A DNA stretch of 53,106 bases, the filler included, from Caldilineae bacterium (GTDB lineage: Bacteria; Chloroflexota; Anaerolineae; DTLA01): NCBI GenBank assembly GCA_037446815.1. It is 21 parts of 21 records of this genome, joined end to end, with 100 filler letters (N's around TTAATTAATTAA, not from the genome) between each part and the next. Parts side by side here need not be neighbours in the genome. Positions count along the whole stretch, not along the records: positions 46,750 to 48,826 come from JBBIHX010000263.1; 20 more parts are not named here. The stretch is one strand, 5' to 3'. Positions 2,991 to 49,001 of the stretch are shown piece after piece. The translations under genes and the position numbers were made by a program. The notes below the pieces were generated by a model. That model saw only the letters and a list, made by a program, of their open reading frames with translations. It searched no databases and was not told the DNA's origin. Positions within the stretch are counted from its first letter, which is position 1, and each line of letters begins with the position of its first letter.

Positions 2991-3090
2991 NNNNNNNNNN
3001 NNNNNNNNNNNNNNNNNNNNNNNNNNNNNNNNNNTTAATTAATTAANNNNNNNNNNNNNNNNNNNNNNNNNNNNNNNNNNNNNNNNNNNN
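2991..3090. other. Artificial contig linker (first of 20)
   Basis: N44-TTAATTAATTAA-N44 with stops in all six frames. Others start at 6080, 9107, 11829, 14550, 17244, 19918, 22582, 25211, 27825, 30290, 32731, 35150, 37509, 39857, 42123, 44388, 46650, 48827 and 50988. Contig lengths decrease monotonically. Confidence 0.99.
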
Positions 3091-6079: not shown

Positions 6080-6179
6080 NNNNNNNNNNNNNNNNNNNNN
6101 NNNNNNNNNNNNNNNNNNNNNNNTTAATTAATTAANNNNNNNNNNNNNNNNNNNNNNNNNNNNNNNNNNNNNNNNNNNN

Positions 6180-6436
6180 GCGAAGAATCTCGCCCCTCAC
6201 CCCAGCCCTCTCCCAGCGGGCGAGGGAGCGACACCCTCACCCCCGCCTCCGGCATCTCCGTCTCCGCCGCGGAGAGGGGGAACGAGCGGGGTGAGGTCTG
6301 TTGGCCTTTCCCCAGACCTATCTGTGCAATCCGTGTTATCCGTGGATCCAACCCTGGAGATGCTCCGCCTTCGGCTCAGCATGACAGAGCGGGGAGGCGG
6401 CGTGCGGGGCAGACCAACACAAGATGAAACCGAGTC
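6180..6436 (-). mobile_element. Partial MITE subfamily B (inverted) with extra nested palindromes
   Basis: Ends in ACCAACACAAGATGAAACCGAGTC (reverse complement of the left TIR); interior has CCCTCACCCC hairpins and an ATCCGTGTTATCCGTGG motif. Confidence 0.75.
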
Positions 6437-6451
6437 ACTCGGGCGATTCGG

Positions 6452-6480
6452 TTGGACTTCCTCGCCGCATGTGGTACACT
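6452..6480 (+). promoter_or_regulatory. Putative sigma70 promoter of corA
   Basis: TTGGAC-N17-TACACT with extended -10 TG; starts 15 bp after the MITE terminus. Confidence 0.6.
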
Positions 6481-8744: not shown

Positions 8745-9055
8745 CCCTCACCCCAGCCCTCTCCCGTACGGCGGGCGAGGGCGTATCGCCTTCGGCCCAG
8801 CATGACAGGGCACATGGAAGGGCTGCGCGTGGGCCGTTACTGTCATTCTGAGCGGCGAAGCCGCGAAGAATCTCCCGCCCTCACCCCAGCCCTCTCCCAG
8901 CGGGCGAGGGCGTATCGCCTTCGGCCCAGCATGACAGGGCACATGGAAGGGCTGCGCGTGGGCCGTTACTGTCATTCTGAGCGGCGAAGCCGCGAAGAAT
9001 CTCCCGCCCTCACCCCAGCCCTCTGCCGAAGGGCGAGAGGGTATCGCCTTCGGCT
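8745..9055. repeat. Tandem array of a ~130-bp composite palindromic unit (about 2.4 copies)
   Basis: CCCTCACCCCAGCCCTCT recurs at 8745, 8878 and 9007 with near-identical intervening sequence. Confidence 0.9.
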
Positions 9056-9362
9056 TGGGCAGCCCAAAACAAGAGGGAACCCGGTTGGAACCCGCCGACC
9101 TTGCCANNNNNNNNNNNNNNNNNNNNNNNNNNNNNNNNNNNNNNNNNNNNTTAATTAATTAANNNNNNNNNNNNNNNNNNNNNNNNNNNNNNNNNNNNNN
9201 NNNNNNGTGTCGCTGCGCGTCAGTATACATTACAAGGCCAGGCGCTGGCAAACGCCACCCGACGGCGATTCGGTTGGGGGATGGCAACCGCGAATAACAC
9301 GAATTCACGCGAATAGGTAACGTGCGACGCACTTCCGAAGTGCGTCGCACGTTATCCCCAAC

Positions 9363-9465
9363 TCTGTCATGCTGAGCCGAAGGCGAAGCATCTCGGGCAG
9401 CCAGATTCTTCGCGGCTTCGCTGCTCAGAATGACGGTAGATGCCAACAGACCTTGGAACCGAATC
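9363..9465 (+). mobile_element. MITE subfamily B interior and right end, abutting the next element
   Basis: GTCATGCTGAGCC...GCTCAGAATGAC interior and right TIR CCAACAGACCTTGGAACCGAATC, followed by CACAACCC. Confidence 0.75.
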
Positions 9466-9473
9466 CACAACCC

Positions 9474-9623
9474 GAGTCGGTTTCATCTTGTGTTGGTGAA
9501 ACGCAAGGGCACTCTCCTCGTGTGTCGTTGCGAGCGAAGCGAAGCAACCTCACGCCCCAGAGATTGCTTCGGGCGCTCCGCGCCCTCGCAATGACAAATA
9601 CCAACAGACCTTGGAACCGAATC
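9474..9623 (+). mobile_element. Complete 150-bp MITE, subfamily A
   Basis: TIRs GAGTCGGTTTCATCTTGTGTTGGT and ACCAACAGACCTTGGAACCGAATC; perfect 8-bp direct repeat CACAACCC at 9466-9473 and 9624-9631. Confidence 0.92.
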
Positions 9624-9638
9624 CACAACCCAGCGGCG

Positions 9639-9667
9639 TTGCTCAGCCGGCACAAGTGTGGTATCAT
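9639..9667 (+). promoter_or_regulatory. Putative sigma70 promoter of cupin-FAH genes
   Basis: TTGCTC-N17-TATCAT with extended TG; 15 bp from the MITE end. Confidence 0.6.
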
Positions 9668-14166: not shown

Positions 14167-14195
14167 ATTATATCACAACGCGCCATCGGCGCGAA
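14167..14195 (-). promoter_or_regulatory. Putative sigma70 promoter of tgt-uppP
   Basis: TTCGCG-N17-TATAAT with extended TG; 15 bp from a MITE TIR beginning at 14211. Confidence 0.6.
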
Positions 14196-14210
14196 ACGCG
14201 CCGGGGCCCG

Positions 14211-14495
14211 AATTCGGTTCCAAACTGTGTTGGTCAAGTTCACGCGAATTCGCGTCGCGCACAATGCCGCAAGACGCGAAGCAGCCTCGGAGGAGTGCAA
14301 CCGCCAATAACGCGAATCCACGCGAACAGGGTTGGGGTGCATCCACGGATGGCACGGATTGCGGGGATTGGGGAGAGTAGGGGCGACCGATCGGTCGCCC
14401 CTACGCGATGGCGCCCCGCATTCGGTTCCAGCGTCTGCGGGTGGCTGTCATTGCGAGGGCGTGGAGCGCCCGAAGCAATCCCCGGGGCGTGAGGT
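14211..14495. repeat. Cluster of MITE TIR remnants and palindromic repeats
   Basis: TIR-like AATTCGGTTCCAAACTGTGTTGGT at 14211, CACGCGAAT/CACGGAT motifs, GTAG REP at 14377-14404, degenerate inverted subfamily A end near 14419-14495. Confidence 0.7.
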
Positions 14496-14649: not shown

Positions 14650-14701
14650 GGCGCTCCGCGCCCTCGCAATGACAAATACCAACAGACTTTGGAACCGAAT
14701 C
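14650..14701 (+). mobile_element. Partial MITE, subfamily A right end
   Basis: CTCGCAATGACAAATACCAACAGACTTTGGAACCGAATC. Confidence 0.85.
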
Positions 14702-14716: not shown

Positions 14717-14744
14717 TTGCGCCGCCGGCAATGTGGGCTATAAT
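14717..14744 (+). promoter_or_regulatory. Putative sigma70 promoter
   Basis: TTGCGC-N16-TATAAT; 15 bp from the MITE end. Confidence 0.6.
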
Positions 14745-17425: not shown

Positions 17426-17486
17426 CAATCCAAAATCAATTTGACAGCGGTAGTATAATGGGCGAAAAGTCTGGGAGGTTTTGCCC

Positions 17487-19748: not shown

Positions 19749-20017
19749 GGCGCGCACGGCGTCCCGCTGCCGCGGCGCGGGCTACAACCGCGAACAGAAA
19801 CGGTATCCACGGATAACACGGAGTGCGCGACTGGCGGGAGATTCTTCGGCGCTTCGCCGCTCGGAATGACACAAGTGCCCCCTCGCCCGCCTCAGCGGGA
19901 GAGGGCCGGGGTGAGGGNNNNNNNNNNNNNNNNNNNNNNNNNNNNNNNNNNNNNNNNNNNNTTAATTAATTAANNNNNNNNNNNNNNNNNNNNNNNNNNN
20001 NNNNNNNNNNNNNNNNN

Positions 20018-30062: not shown

Positions 30063-30289
30063 GGGTAAGGGCGACGCTCCCTCGCCCGCAGCAATCTGTC
30101 ATTCTGAGCGGCGAAGCCGCGAAGAATCTCGCTGCCCGAGATGCTTCGCCTTCGGCTCAGCATGACAGAAGTGGGGAGGCGGCGCGCGGGGCAGACCAAC
30201 ACAAGATGGAACCGACTCAGGGTAAGGGCGACGCTCCCTCGCCCGCAGCAATCTGTCATTCTGAGCGGCGAAGCCGCGAAGAATCTCGC
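30063..30289. repeat. Duplicated composite repeat containing an inverted MITE B left end
   Basis: GGGTAAGGGCGACGCTCCCTCGCCCGCAGCAATCTGTCATTCTGAGC... occurs twice around a TIR that ends at 30218. Confidence 0.8.
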
Positions 30290-30413: not shown

Positions 30414-30442
30414 TTGACAACCCGGCGCGAATGGTGTATACT
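30414..30442 (+). promoter_or_regulatory. Strong sigma70 promoter
   Basis: TTGACA-N17-TATACT. Confidence 0.8.
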
Positions 30443-32830: not shown

Positions 32831-33040
32831 CTTCGCGGCTTCGCCGCTCAGAATGACAGATTGCCGCGGGCGAGGGAGCGTGGCCACGCGGGGCTGAAGC
32901 CGCCGCGCTGAGGGTCGAGTCTTCGGGGACCCAGCCCGATCCTGTCACCCTGAGCGAAGCGAAGGGTCTCGGGGTGCGAGATTCTTCGCGGCTTCGCCGC
33001 TCAGAATGACAGATTTCCGCGGACGAGGGGGCGTGGTCGC
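32831..33040. repeat. Composite palindromic repeat block
   Basis: Two GCTCAGAATGACAGAT units about 153 bp apart with GTCACCCTGAGCGAAGCGAAGGGTCTC between; an inverted relative lies at 42223-42350. Confidence 0.8.
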
Positions 33041-33048
33041 GAGGGGCG

Positions 33049-39956: not shown

Positions 39957-39987
39957 GACAAATACCAACAGACTTTGGAACCGAATC
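39957..39987 (+). mobile_element. MITE subfamily A right TIR
   Basis: GACAAATACCAACAGACTTTGGAACCGAATC at the contig start. Confidence 0.8.
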
Positions 39988-40002
39988 ACCGCCCGAGACG
40001 GG

Positions 40003-40031
40003 TTGACTTTTTTGCCGACCTGTGGTAATAT
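40003..40031 (+). promoter_or_regulatory. Putative sigma70 promoter
   Basis: TTGACT-N17-TAATAT with extended TG; 15 bp from the MITE end. Confidence 0.65.
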
Positions 40032-41911: not shown

Positions 41912-41975
41912 AACTTGCGATGCCGCCCGAAGTATACAACGGAATGGGGCGGGTTGCCACTTGCGCGCACGCTGT

Positions 41976-42122
41976 GATTCGGTTCCAAAGTCTGTCGGTA
42001 TCTGTCATTGCGAGGGCGCGGAGCGCCCGAAGCAATCTCCGAGGCAGCAATCTCCGAGGCGTGAGGTTGCTTCGCTTCGCTCGCAACGACACACGAGGAG
42101 AGTGTCCTTGCGCTTCACCAAC
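41976..42122 (-). mobile_element. Nearly complete MITE subfamily A (inverted)
   Basis: Starts GATTCGGTTCCAAAGTCTGTCGGT and runs through the GTCATTGCGAG palindrome to TTCACCAAC at the contig end. Confidence 0.85.
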
Positions 42123-42351
42123 NNNNNNNNNNNNNNNNNNNNNNNNNNNNNNNNNNNNNNNNNNNNTTAATTAATTAANNNNNNNNNNNNNNNNNNNNNN
42201 NNNNNNNNNNNNNNNNNNNNNNGCGGCGAAGCCGCGAAGAATCTCGCAAACCGAGACCCTTCGCTTCGCTCAGGGTGACAGGACCGGGCCGCGCCCCGAA
42301 GGGCCCCACCCTCAGCGCGGCGGCTTTAGCCCCGCGCAGCCTCGCCCCCTT

Positions 42352-44179: not shown

Positions 44180-44203
44180 GCCGATTCCCTCGCCTCAGCC
44201 CGC

Positions 44204-44378
44204 CATTCGGTTCCATTTTGTGTTGGTCTGCCCCGCACGCCGCCTCTCCACTCTGTCATGCTGAGCCGAAGGCGATACGCCCTCGCCCTTCGGGAGAGGG
44301 CTGGGGTGAGGGGCGAGATTCTTCGCGGCTTTGCCGCTCAGAATGACGGTAGATGCCAACAGACTTTGGAGCCGAATC
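44204..44378 (+). mobile_element. Complete 175-bp MITE, subfamily B
   Basis: TIRs CATTCGGTTCCATTTTGTGTTGGT and GCCAACAGACTTTGGAGCCGAATC; flanks CAGCCCGC (44196-44203) and CAGCCTGC (44379-44386) match 7/8. Confidence 0.88.
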
Positions 44379-46649: not shown

Positions 46650-46822
46650 NNNNNNNNNNNNNNNNNNNNNNNNNNNNNNNNNNNNNNNNNNNNTTAATTA
46701 ATTAANNNNNNNNNNNNNNNNNNNNNNNNNNNNNNNNNNNNNNNNNNNNTCCGCCCAATCCGTGTTGTCCGTGGGTACAACCCCGGAGATGCTTCGCCTT
46801 TGGCTCAGCATGACAAAAGACA

Positions 46823-46972
46823 GAGTCGGTTTCATCTTGTGTTGGTGAACCGTGGGCGCACTCTCCTCGTGTGTCATTGCGAGCGAAGCGAAGCAATCGC
46901 GCCCCCCGGGGATTGCTTCGGGCGCTCCGCGCCCTCGCAATGACAGCGCCAACAGACTTTTGGAACCGTGTC
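46823..46972 (+). mobile_element. Complete 150-bp MITE, subfamily A
   Basis: TIRs GAGTCGGTTTCATCTTGTGTTGG and CCAACAGACTTTTGGAACCGTGTC; perfect 8-bp direct repeat AAAAGACA at 46815-46822 and 46973-46980. Confidence 0.93.
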
Positions 46973-46987
46973 AAAAGACAACAATAC

Positions 46988-47036
46988 TTGACAAAGACGC
47001 AATTCAGTGGTATACTATATGCAAATTGCATGTAGT
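46988..47036 (+). promoter_or_regulatory. Strong sigma70 promoter with overlapping dyad operator candidate
   Basis: TTGACA-N17-TATACT with extended TG; ACTATATGCAA-A-TTGCATGTAGT at 47014-47036. Confidence 0.75.
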
Positions 47037-47086
47037 CGCATTCTGCAATTAGCGCGACCACGCAGATTCACATCAGGAGGAACATC

Positions 47087-48163
47087 GTGGCCACCGAGAA
47101 ACAAATCATGGCAGCCTTGAGCAACGTCATGGACCCTGAGTTGCGCAAGAGCATCACCGAGTTGGGCATGGTGCGCAGCGTGCAGGTGCAGGGCGACCGG
47201 GTGAACGTTACCCTCGCCCTCACCACCCTCGCGTGCCCGCTGTCGGGCTCCATCGCGGAGGATGTGCGCAAGGCGATCCAAGCCCTGGACGGCGTCGCCG
47301 CCGTGGACGTGAAACTGGAGGAGATGACGGACGAGGAGCGCGCCCGCGCCTTCGCTTCGGTCAGGGGCCAGCCGCAGGAGGAAGGCATGGCCGCCCACCT
47401 GAACCGCATCCAGCACGTGCTCGCCGTCATGAGCGGCAAGGGCGGCGTGGGCAAGTCGCTGGTAACGGCCCAACTGGCCGTGGCGCTGCGCCGCAAGGGC
47501 CTGCGCGTCGGCATCCTGGACGCCGACATCACCGGCCCCAGCATCCCCAAAATCCTTGGCCTCACCGACCGTCCGGAGTCCACGCCCCTGGGCATCGCGC
47601 CGGTCAAGAGCAAAACCGGCATCCGCGTCATGTCCATCAACCTGCTGCTCCCCAACGAGGATGACGCCGTCATCTGGCGCGGCCCGCTCATCGGCGGCGC
47701 CATCAAGCAGTTCTGGGGCGATGTGTTCTGGGGCGACCTGGACTACCTGCTCATTGACCTGCCGCCCGGAACCGCCGACGCGCCGCTCACCGTCATGCAG
47801 AGCATCCCGCTCAACGGCATCATCCTGGTAACCTCGCCGCAGGAACTGGCGGGCATGGTGGTGCGCAAGGCGGCGCAGATGGCGCTGCAACTGCACGTCC
47901 CCATGCTGGGCATCGTGGAGAACATGAGTTACGCCGTCTGCCCCCATTGCGGGGAGCGCCTGGAAATCTTCGGCCCCAGCCACACGGCAGAGGCGGCGGC
48001 CCTCATGGGCGTCCCCCTGCTGGGCCAGATACCCATAGACCCGCACATTGCCACCCTGTCGGACGAGGGAGCGCTGGAGGACTACGAATCGGCGGCGTTT
48101 GAGTCCGTCGCGGATGAACTGTTGAAGCGCGTGCCGGAAAAGCAGACGAAACCCATGTTGTAG
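47087..48163 (+). CDS. mrp: Mrp/NBP35 (ApbC) Fe-S cluster carrier ATPase with N-terminal DUF59
   Basis: DPEL...LTTLACP, SGKGGVGKS, DADITGPSIP, WRGP, DLPPGT, ENMS...CPHC. Confidence 0.94.
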   Translation: MATEKQIMAALSNVMDPELRKSITELGMVRSVQVQGDRVNVTLALTTLACPLSGSIAEDVRKAIQALDGVAAVDVKLEEMTDEERARAFASVRGQPQEEGMAAHLNRIQHVLAVMSGKGGVGKSLVTAQLAVALRRKGLRVGILDADITGPSIPKILGLTDRPESTPLGIAPVKSKTGIRVMSINLLLPNEDDAVIWRGPLIGGAIKQFWGDVFWGDLDYLLIDLPPGTADAPLTVMQSIPLNGIILVTSPQELAGMVVRKAAQMALQLHVPMLGIVENMSYAVCPHCGERLEIFGPSHTAEAAALMGVPLLGQIPIDPHIATLSDEGALEDYESAAFESVADELLKRVPEKQTKPML

Positions 48164-48189
48164 TGCCAAAGGTGAGGAGGTGAAAACCC

Positions 48190-48402
48190 ATGGCGATGCG
48201 AAAGTTCCGCTGTTCCGACTGCGGCCACACGTTTGAGATCGCATACGGGACGGGCACGCCTGGCGCGGCCATGACGTGCCCCAACTGCGGCGGCAAGAAC
48301 GTGCACCGCGCCGAGGAGGACCGCGGGTACAACCGCGGCGGTCGGGGCGCTGGCCGTGGCCGTGGCCCTGCCAGCGCGGGGCGCGGGCGCGGCGGCGCAT
48401 AG
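48190..48402 (+). CDS. FmdB-like zinc ribbon protein with Gly/Arg-rich tail
   Basis: CSDCGHTFE...CPNCG and RGGRGAGRGRG tail; GAGGAGGTG RBS. Confidence 0.8.
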   Translation: MAMRKFRCSDCGHTFEIAYGTGTPGAAMTCPNCGGKNVHRAEEDRGYNRGGRGAGRGRGPASAGRGRGGA

Positions 48403-48426
48403 TCCTTGACAAGGGAGGTCCGATCC

Positions 48427-48639
48427 ATGTGTCAGGCGACGGTCTTTATGCAGCGAGGTGCGCAAAAAGAGGAAATCATGCGCGACGTGATTGTGCTGGA
48501 AGCCGACGGCGACGAGGTGCGCATCCGCAGTTTCTTTGACGCGCCCCAGACCCTGCGCGCGCGGCTTCGGCAGATAGACTTTCTGAAGCACACCGTAACC
48601 CTGGAACCGTTGGAACAAGCCGGAGAGGAGAACACATAG
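48427..48639 (+). CDS. cooT: CooT family nickel-binding protein
   Basis: MC N-terminus, IMRDV and IDFLKH C-terminal pattern; 70 aa; GGGAGG RBS. Confidence 0.78.
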   Translation: MCQATVFMQRGAQKEEIMRDVIVLEADGDEVRIRSFFDAPQTLRARLRQIDFLKHTVTLEPLEQAGEENT

Positions 48640-48640
48640 C

Positions 48641-48826
48641 ATGGATGACTTGAAGAAACTGGCCGTCCTGTTGCCGCACTGGTCGGAGCACAACGCCGAA
48701 CACGCCGAGGAGTTCCGCGAGTGGGCGCAGCGCGCCGAAGCCGCGGGGAAAACCGACGCGGCCCAGCACATCCGCGCTGCCGCCGACGCGCTGGAACAGG
48801 CCAATCGGGCGCTGGCCGCCGCTATC
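48641..48826 (+). CDS. Small His-containing helical protein (3' truncated)
   Basis: KLAVLLPHWSEHNAEHAEEF; starts 1 nt after the cooT stop. Confidence 0.75.
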
Positions 48827-48926: not shown

Positions 48927-48957
48927 GACAAATACCAACAGACTTTGCAACCGAGTC
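48927..48957 (+). mobile_element. MITE subfamily A right TIR
   Basis: GACAAATACCAACAGACTTTGCAACCGAGTC at the contig start. Confidence 0.8.
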
Positions 48958-48972
48958 CGCGGTGAATTTCGC

Positions 48973-49001
48973 TTGACACCGCGCGAGAGTCGTGGTATGA
49001 T
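48973..49001 (+). promoter_or_regulatory. Sigma70 promoter of M23-bactofilin genes
   Basis: TTGACA-N17-TATGAT with extended TG; 15 bp from the MITE end. Confidence 0.75.

Follow-up and report, generated by a model that had tools for sequence, protein, structure and literature searches.

The stretch of DNA analysed here, hereafter the window (53,106 bases of the Caldilineae bacterium assembly GCA_037446815.1, linkers included), carries a family of miniature inverted-repeat transposable elements (MITEs), copies of which stand at a fixed distance from predicted promoters. We observed (i) the anatomy of the element together with its 8-bp target-site duplication, (ii) a spacing to the promoter that keeps a single-base register in four related Anaerolineae genomes, and (iii) the insertion of the element beside promoters that existed before it. 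It is highly probable that these MITEs were derived from a Mutator-type insertion sequence (IS), are moved in trans, and land 15 bp (sometimes 16 bp) upstream of the -35 hexamer. The main element is situated on contig JBBIHX010000263.1, which corresponds to positions 46750-48826, and is arranged as follows.

46815..46822, no strand: left copy of the 8-bp target-site duplication AAAAGACA, read from the sequence and from the joint of an empty allele
46823..46972, no strand: MITE copy (main element), with its left end at 46823-46845, its right end at 46949-46972 (with a 1-nt insertion) and a long GC-rich hairpin as its interior
46973..46980, no strand: right copy of AAAAGACA, which makes up the 15-nt gap together with 46981-46987
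46988..47016, plus strand: predicted promoter, TTGACA (46988-46993), 17 nt, TATACT (47011-47016), with TGG just 5' of the -10
47087..48163, plus strand: gene served by this promoter, encoding a Mrp/NUBPL-type Fe-S cluster carrier ATPase of 358 amino acids (GTG start after AGGAGG; Pfam FeS_assembly_P and ParA/NUBPL)

The window is not one molecule. It comprises 21 contigs, from 2,990 down to 2,019 nucleotides (nt) and sorted by length, joined by twenty 100-nt linkers (runs of N around TTAATTAATTAA; 2991-3090, 6080-6179 and 18 more). As the contigs were joined artificially, distances between loci are meaningless. An earlier note on this DNA listed eight ends separated by 15 nt from a -35 hexamer, namely 6436, 9623, 14211 (minus strand), 14701, 39987, 41976 (minus strand), 46972 and 48957, and all eight, which are spread over seven contigs, agree with the sequence base for base. 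Their common layout is ...GGAACCG plus 4 nt (mostly AATC), 15 unrelated bases, a TTGnnn-like hexamer, 16-18 nt and TAnnnT. Three cases that had been regarded as weaker, 17425, 30398 and 9267 (minus strand), also turned out to lie at a gap of 15 nt, the gap being the distance between the end of the element and the -35. All promoters described here are predictions from the consensus. Besides the main element, the following ends and promoters were recognised.

6414..6480, plus strand: end (6414-6436) and predicted promoter, TTGGAC (6452-6457), 17 nt, TACACT (6475-6480)
9222..9289, minus strand: degenerate end (9267-9289, facing left) and predicted promoter, TTGCCA (9246-9251), 18 nt, TATACT (9222-9227)
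9639..9667, plus strand: predicted promoter beyond the end at 9623, TTGCTC, 17 nt, TATCAT (15-nt gap; 10.8 bits), with an open reading frame (ORF) downstream
14167..14233, minus strand: end (14211-14233, facing left) and predicted promoter, TTCGCG (14190-14195), 17 nt, TATAAT (14167-14172), 9.7 bits
14679..14744, plus strand: end (14679-14701) and predicted promoter, TTGCGC (14717-14722), 16 nt, TATAAT (14739-14744), 11.5 bits
30390..30442, plus strand: partial end cut by a linker (the last 9 nt, at the start of a contig), 15 nt, and predicted promoter, TTGACA (30414-30419), 17 nt, TATACT (30437-30442)
39965..40031, plus strand: end (39965-39987, cut by a linker) and predicted promoter, TTGACT (40003-40008), 17 nt, TAATAT (40026-40031), 16.1 bits
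41931..41998, minus strand: end (41976-41998, facing left) and predicted promoter, GTGGCA (41955-41960), 18 nt, TATACT (41931-41936)
48935..49001, plus strand: end (48935-48957, cut by a linker) and predicted promoter, TTGACA (48973-48978), 17 nt, TATGAT (48996-49001), 17.0 bits

At the remaining weaker case, TTGACA stands at gap 15 and TATAAT follows after only 7 nt (17441-17459); a short deletion may be responsible, or the true -35 may be situated at another position.

A 19-nt core of the ends, CGGTTCC....TGTTGG (from outside to inside), occurs 24 times in the window at up to 5 mismatches. One occurrence sits inside a gene and is attributable to chance. The repeat ending at 46972 carries one extra nucleotide; this end is therefore not among the 23 pattern-defined ends, and was identified by visual inspection. 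We scored the flanks with our own log-odds matrix for the -35 and -10, whose frequencies are approximate values for sigma70 promoters, at a threshold of 7 bits. Eight of the 23 ends (6414, 9601, 14215, 14679, 17403, 39965, 41980 and 48935) scored at least 7 bits at gap 15 (binomial P = 9e-16). Counted per position over the remaining gaps of these flanks, such promoters occurred at a rate of 0.0026; shuffled sequences gave 0.0009 and the reverse complement 0.0008. The 15-nt register is thus confirmed as real and far beyond chance. The logo of the 23 ends, made without any selection, peaked at +16/+17 (T, T) and again at +34-44, as had been predicted, and the enrichment of -35/-10 at a fixed offset exceeded the shuffled control for the flanks of the window. 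It had also been stated that the 15-bp gaps share no sequence; indeed, the logo was near background from +3 to +9, the 8 bases adjoining the element carried almost no information, and gap, spacer and downstream sequence differed between copies. A weak C/G bias at +1/+2 was seen in the 23 ends of the window and not in 86 ends of a related genome, G003, described below. Ten of 11 promoters precede an ORF of at least 80 amino acids on the same strand, often behind AGGAGG, and the eleventh lies at a contig edge. Of the ends that face a promoter in the window and G003 (35 in all), 77% had G at -14 and 15 had TG at -15/-14, these extended -10 positions being unscored by our matrix.

Each end of the element consists of the core and a 4-nt terminus, mostly AATC or AGTC, and the element finishes in C. 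We also considered AATC as target DNA and rejected this idea, as the duplications directly adjoin AATC. Complete copies in the window are either 150 bp (9474-9623 and 46823-46972; 90% alike, repeat family D13) or 175 bp (44204-44378) in length. The inverted ends of ~23 nt, the units of 150-175 bp without coding capacity, the 8-bp target duplications, and the empty alleles or orthologues found at five loci characterise these repeats as MITEs, bearing out the non-autonomous transposon proposed in the earlier note. When the candidate end pairs of every locus examined were compared, 25 of 57 had 8-bp flanks with no more than one mismatch; the remaining pairs, without matching flanks, are mostly false pairings across linkers or between different elements. 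Two loci of the window illustrate the duplications.

9443..9631: double insertion into one target, comprising the right end of a first element (9443-9465), CACAACCC (9466-9473), a 150-bp MITE (9474-9623) and again CACAACCC (9624-9631)
44204..44378: 175-bp copy, a non-promoter insertion, with the duplication CAGCCCGC/CAGCCTGC at 44196/44379 and neither side having a promoter at gap 14-17

At the former locus, the second element duplicated the exact 8 bp that already adjoined the first one. Correia/NEMIS elements of Neisseria are classical bacterial MITEs depending on a transposase made elsewhere, and the repeats in the window are likewise short and non-coding, with inverted ends, duplications, many copies and a transposase made elsewhere. 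To our knowledge, classical MITEs do not lie a constant number of bases from promoters.

A scan of public genomes gave at least eight stretches with the end pattern, among them stretches of Chloroflexota metagenome-assembled genomes (MAGs). The Chloroflexota host, which had been regarded as probable, was substantiated by related sequences from the same phylum: the Mrp protein is 93, 92 and 88% identical to its counterparts in G006, G007 and G003, respectively, and 40% identical to that in G001. With identities of 88-93%, the first three genomes represent close kin of the source organism. In G003, we found 78 ends against a single match for a reversed control pattern, and the copies are ~101 bp in length. 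Promoters of at least 9 bits were present within 56 nt of 39 of the 86 unique ends; 27 of the 39 lie at gaps of 14-17 nt (14 at 15, eight at 16, three at 14 and two at 17), and the other 12 are scattered. At the threshold of 7 bits, 19 of the 86 ends had a promoter at gap 15 (P = 2e-28) and 12 had one at gap 16. Flank promoters at gap 15-16 were also found in 3/5 cases in G006 and 5/8 in G007. Both types of ends face promoters (6/14 versus 2/9 in the window; 10/47 versus 17/39 in G003, P = 0.04). Guerillot et al. (2014; PMC3942029, legend to Fig. 2) took a -35 box 13-17 bp from the end in >20% of junctions as the mark of targeting; the best promoter, of at least 7 bits, lay at gap 14-17 at 8/23 junctions in the window and 27/86 in G003. 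Outside this group, the exact degenerate end pattern gave one or two matches in five of 300 other Chloroflexota genomes sampled. Because these matches do not exceed those of the reversed-pattern control, the ends are confined to a few lineages. One single match among the five genomes belongs to the unpublished genome G234. One of the eight stretches from the scan of public genomes, a lone end match of the one-mismatch type, lies in a Pseudomonadales MAG (L004), where no partner end was seen, and may be due to chance or a binning error.

The promoters were in place before the elements. A contig of run X1, 96% identical over 487 nt among the contigs aligned to 46750-48826, joins 46813 to 46972. 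The joint skips 158 nt, equal to the 150-bp element and one 8-bp duplication, and 7 letters fit both sides. The Mrp promoter (TTGACA-17-TATACT) and its palindromic leader are conserved in G006, G007 and G003, all of which lack a MITE upstream (alignment A4). Four other loci are filled in both G003 and its close relative G005 (4/4; alignment A1). The same loci are all empty in G007, with the -35 and -10 kept, and three of them are empty in G006, the fourth having a different insert of ~95 nt at the same spot. Altogether, the promoter is kept without the element in relatives at five loci, and the comparison of empty sites suggested in the earlier note thereby shows insertion upstream of pre-existing promoters. 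The G006 insert (L116, G006:C77; A1 columns 150-265) has a degenerate end and a hairpin core, and may represent either another insertion into that target or an ancient copy that has degenerated. As for the leader, its palindrome (TATGCAAATTGCATATAG-like; 47017-47060) is conserved in four genomes (also L256, L257 and L258; A4) and may be bound, as an operator, by a regulator of the genes for Fe-S assembly. G007 (L257, G007:C281) carries a hairpin-repeat insertion of ~135 nt in the Mrp 5' leader, between the -10 and the ribosome site (A4 columns 345-480), which is absent from the window, G006 and G003.

A long element with the same ends and a transposase of the DDE type from the Mutator/IS256 superfamily, anticipated in the earlier note, was found, in other genomes only. 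G001, a long-read genome, has five copies of a 1,528-bp element, all of which are flanked by perfect 8-bp duplications. It also has two 140-bp MITEs, in each of which one end is the left end of the long element and the other has a core equal to the commonest end in the window. The ends of the MITEs and those of the ~1.53-kb element share the form GA(A/G)TCGGTTCC....TGTTGG, and the metagenome locus L216 has an end core identical to that of the window, with an AATC terminus. In two of the five G001 copies (L012 3100-4900 and L013; G001:C7), a different IS interrupts the element close to where the transposase gene has its 5' end; this IS has a 367-amino-acid ORF with rve_3 and Mu-transposase C-terminal domains. 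The P0001 family is widespread in metagenomes, with 1,613 matches among 8,000 candidates scored and 424 representatives at 50% identity. At 62 of 80 metagenome loci, both ends lie ~1.53 kb apart, and perfect duplications were found in only eight; few are to be expected, because short-read contigs of a multi-copy element may join the flanks of different copies. A terminal C was counted for 120 of 124 termini of full-length elements, the spectrum being AGTC 101, AATC 8, AGAC 4, AAAC 4 and AGCC 2, plus one AGT that is cut at a contig end with no C visible.

The single gene of the 1,528-bp element encodes P0001, which is 459 amino acids in its longest frame (427-428 in relatives). P0001 passes the Pfam model Transposase_mut (28 bits; cut-off 21), and PF00872 is assigned to most of the 120 homologues listed. 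D202, D265, E385, H289 and a CxxC...CxxC finger are invariant in nine diverse members (down to 29% identity), and C286 of the C286-x-x-H289 motif is Ser in two of the nine. The D, D, E triad has 120 amino acids between its second D and the E, against 99-138 in the portion of PMC3942029 covered here, and the C-x-x-H motif comes 21 amino acids after the second D, against 11-19 in the same source. We compared P0001 and eight diverse relatives with hidden Markov models (HMMs) of known families, and the best matches were to IS256 and ISH6. Nevertheless, P0001 reached no curated NCBIfam IS model. It scored 35.8 bits against the IS256 model NF033543 (cut-off 150; relatives 26-63 bits; E 4e-9 to 2e-17 for P0001 and relatives together) and 25.5 bits against the ISH6 model (cut-off 240; family range 24-50 bits, E down to 2e-13). 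There was no match of P0001 to the ISKra4 model NF033572 (cut-off 205 bits) at E <=1, the best relative having an E-value of 0.0077, and none to the ISLre2 model NF033529 (cut-off 200 bits), for which the best relative scored 22.4 bits. The alignment of the family profile with six Chloroflexota ISKra4 proteins by hhalign gave a probability of 94.8% (E 5.5e-8, 16% identity), which suggests only a remote homology between the P0001 family and ISKra4 inside the superfamily. The earlier note had proposed mobilisation in trans by an ISLre2/TnGBS-like transposase. The partner found in other genomes upholds a DDE enzyme of the Mutator/IS256 superfamily, and by HMM comparison it does not belong to the ISLre2/TnGBS family. 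We infer that an enzyme of the P0001 type moved the copies in the window.

The full-length copies also lie close to promoters, at a different spacing. A promoter of at least 7 bits was found within 40 nt in 41 of 107 unique full-length flanks from metagenome loci, compared with ~9 in shuffles, and 36 of the 41 are at a gap of no more than 16. In copies at gap 5, the TTG of the -35 falls within the duplication. In many full-length copies (L144-L223), the 8 bases adjoining the end finish in TTG, and the duplication there brings the initial half of the -35 to the opposite side of the element, adjoining the terminus GA(G/C)TC. Thus, the whole family hugs promoters, the strict 15/16 register being a property of the Anaerolineae lineage to which the window belongs.

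Several observations weigh against the landing of trans-mobilised MITEs at a fixed distance from promoters as formulated above. The promoters are consensus predictions, and the empty allele of the main element comes from one Logan contig. G003, G006 and G007 are so closely related to the source organism that they add loci and not deep phylogenetic independence. Targeting is a preference: among the complete G003 copies that show a clear duplication, 16 in number, eight have a promoter of at least 7 bits at gap 14-17 and eight do not, and in the window the copy at 44204-44378 has none at these gaps. The eight promoter-sited copies in G003 have a promoter on exactly one side, and none has promoters on both. 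Among full-length copies, 31 of the 41 promoters are at gap 2-11 (mode 5) and only five at 14-16; these five, out of 107 flanks, fall short of the published 13-17-bp targeting. The copies in G001, G002 and G004 are at gaps of 4-15, and the enzyme variant giving the 15-bp register was not seen among the full-length copies examined. Finally, the window has no transposase, as the earlier note had stated (best tblastn E-value 1.8). Searches with P0001 found no transposase in G003 and G002, both incomplete MAGs, and only fragments in G004.

The MITEs would be non-coding deletion derivatives of the ~1.53-kb IS, and its transposase, a DDE enzyme of the prokaryotic Mutator-like superfamily, would be supplied in trans. 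A staggered cut of 8 bp, with its near edge 7 bp upstream of the -35 hexamer, would after insertion leave the end of the element 15 bp (sometimes 16 bp) from the -35 and the core promoter intact. With regard to the cue, we lean, by no wide measure, towards the promoter as a functional unit rather than a word in the DNA; sigmaA holoenzyme or sigma region 4 bound there would be the most likely candidate. It is attractive to speculate further, although we would put this at somewhat under an even chance, that a third, unclassified lineage of Mutator-like enzymes homes to promoters. This lineage would lie below every curated IS threshold, be only a remote relation of ISKra4 and have two registers (~5 and 15-16 bp) about one helical turn apart, each fixed by lineage, as if docking on one face of the polymerase.

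Alternatively, the insertion may be targeted by a transposase that reads DNA, i.e., the TTG of the -35 or the shape of the promoter at a fixed distance, without contacting RNA polymerase. We regard this as rather unlikely, and it is nonetheless the explanation to be taken most seriously among the alternatives: TTG clearly outweighs every other signal in the logo made without selection, the duplication of full-length relatives often ends in TTG, with the cut overlapping the -35, and ISH6, one of the nearest HMM matches, is described in the part of PMC3942029 covered as targeting an AT-rich word that it duplicates. However, any genome contains thousands of instances of a word of three bases, and yet a complete promoter whose spacer measures 16-18 nt accompanies roughly one in two of the well-defined insertions. 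In addition, promoter-facing ends are enriched for the extended -10, and the duplication as well as the 7 bases up to the -35 carry no information. The difference of about one helical turn between the registers of ~5 and ~15-16 bp is also a better fit to docking on the face of a bound protein.

Random intergenic insertion followed by selection against copies that break promoters or genes is very improbable. DNA immediately upstream of promoters is a tolerated place, and no promoter is recognisable at the sites of half of the complete elements. Selection would, however, permit any position upstream of about -40, and the observed spike is only one to two bases wide: gap 15-16 accounts for 22 of the 39 best promoters in G003 and for seven of eight in the window at 9 bits or more. 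It would also not account for two elements having used the identical 8 bp.

Some ISs carry outward promoters, and the promoters described here could in principle belong to the element as mobile promoters or, in a variant of this idea, the inverted end could be a recruited regulator site. We give this scarcely any credence. Gap, spacer and downstream sequence have nothing in common between copies, and the duplication sits between the element and the -35. Because relatives and the empty allele have the same promoters without the element, a promoter carried by the element is ruled out, and for the promoter itself these empty sites already refute the idea.

An artefact of assembly or contig joining, to which 21 short joined contigs with many elements at their edges might point, has a negligible chance of explaining the pattern, as every stretch from end to promoter lies within one contig, complete copies with duplications (e.g., 9474-9623 and 46823-46972) lie inside contigs, and other assemblies, among them the long-read genome G001, show the same pattern. 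MITEs stand at many contig ends, and many contigs start or stop inside a repeat; the MAG is broken into 2-3-kb contigs with repeat edges because multi-copy elements halt a short-read assembler. Features that run across linkers, such as repeat family D1, are artefacts of joining.

The earlier note knew of no description of such a trans-mobilised, promoter-cued family in a Chloroflexota host, which was too strong a statement. In the part of Guerillot et al. (PMC3942029) covered here, insertion 13-17 bp upstream of the -35 of sigmaA promoters is reported for TnGBS/ISLre2 (p-MULT 3) and for 13 ISs of the ISKra4 group (p-MULT 4), the larger p-MULT 4 family being reported from phyla including Chloroflexi. 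The same part describes 8-9-bp repeats and a terminal C for elements of p-MULT 3 and the ISKra4 group, and insertion of ISKra4-type elements in both orientations when their ends are near-perfect repeats, and its authors suggest that the RNA polymerase initiation complex is contacted. In the part of PMC9208149 covered, ISLre2 and ISKra4 prefer positions 50-250 bp from genes. The promoter-hugging behaviour seen here is therefore of a published kind, here in MITE form. Neither the MITE form nor the transposase lineage of P0001 was found in the literature searched, the tables of ends and insertion sites of PMC3942029 being outside its coverage.

The ISKra4 group resembles the present family in its Mutator-like DDE enzyme with an N-terminal zinc finger, in its 8-9-bp duplications and terminal C, in inserting, in either orientation, at 13-17 bp upstream of the -35 of sigmaA promoters, and in its presence in Chloroflexi (the ISKra4 HMM was above cut-off in 17 of 151 Chloroflexota genomes sampled). 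It differs in that P0001 lacks an ISKra4 HMM match at E <=1 and has C-x-x-H where six ISKra4 proteins have D-x-x-H, and in that the copies of the window are non-coding MITEs. No ISKra4 gene above cut-off was found in G001 or in G003-G006. Eight ISKra4 loci in other genomes had neither matching ends nor clear inverted repeats, apart from one match with two mismatches ~750 nt from the gene (L136). TnGBS/ISLre2 elements share the position (15-17 bp upstream of the -35), 8-9-bp duplications and a Mutator-superfamily enzyme, according to the same part of PMC3942029. Theirs, however, are found in Firmicutes and insert in one orientation with the right end by the promoter, whereas both ends face promoters here, and neither P0001 nor its relatives reached the ISLre2 HMM threshold. 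IS256 and ISH6 (p-MULT 1 and 2), the best HMM matches of P0001, share the order D, D, E with C-x-x-H and 8-bp duplications. The scores are nevertheless far below the cut-offs, and the P0001 family hugs promoters, whereas insertion is reported in the covered part of PMC3942029 as random for IS256 and directed to an AT-rich word for ISH6.

Homing to promoters lets a transposon spread without breaking genes. An extra enzyme lineage would offer comparative material for locating the determinant of promoter recognition: its natural insertions number in the hundreds, its empty sites are clean and its spacings fall into two classes. For the annotation of uncultured Chloroflexota, an element end with TTG at +16 flags a likely promoter, the consensus being TTGnnn, 17 nt and an extended -10. 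If the lineage with two registers is genuine, the swarm of MITEs would mark the real sigmaA promoters of uncultured Anaerolineae from sequence alone.

No RNA gene was recognised in the window (0 Rfam matches at gathering thresholds and no tRNAs). We noticed a second small, GC-rich hairpin repeat family, GTCATT[CG][TC]GAG....CTC[GA][GC]AATGAC, which is very abundant both inside the MITEs and standing alone (2922-2969, 8807-9005, 19833-19871, 30063-30289, 32831-33047, 42064-42280 and others; families D3, D4, D7, D19 and D20). In addition, a unit of 129 bp is present as a tandem duplicate with 98% identity at 8771-9028 (family D10).

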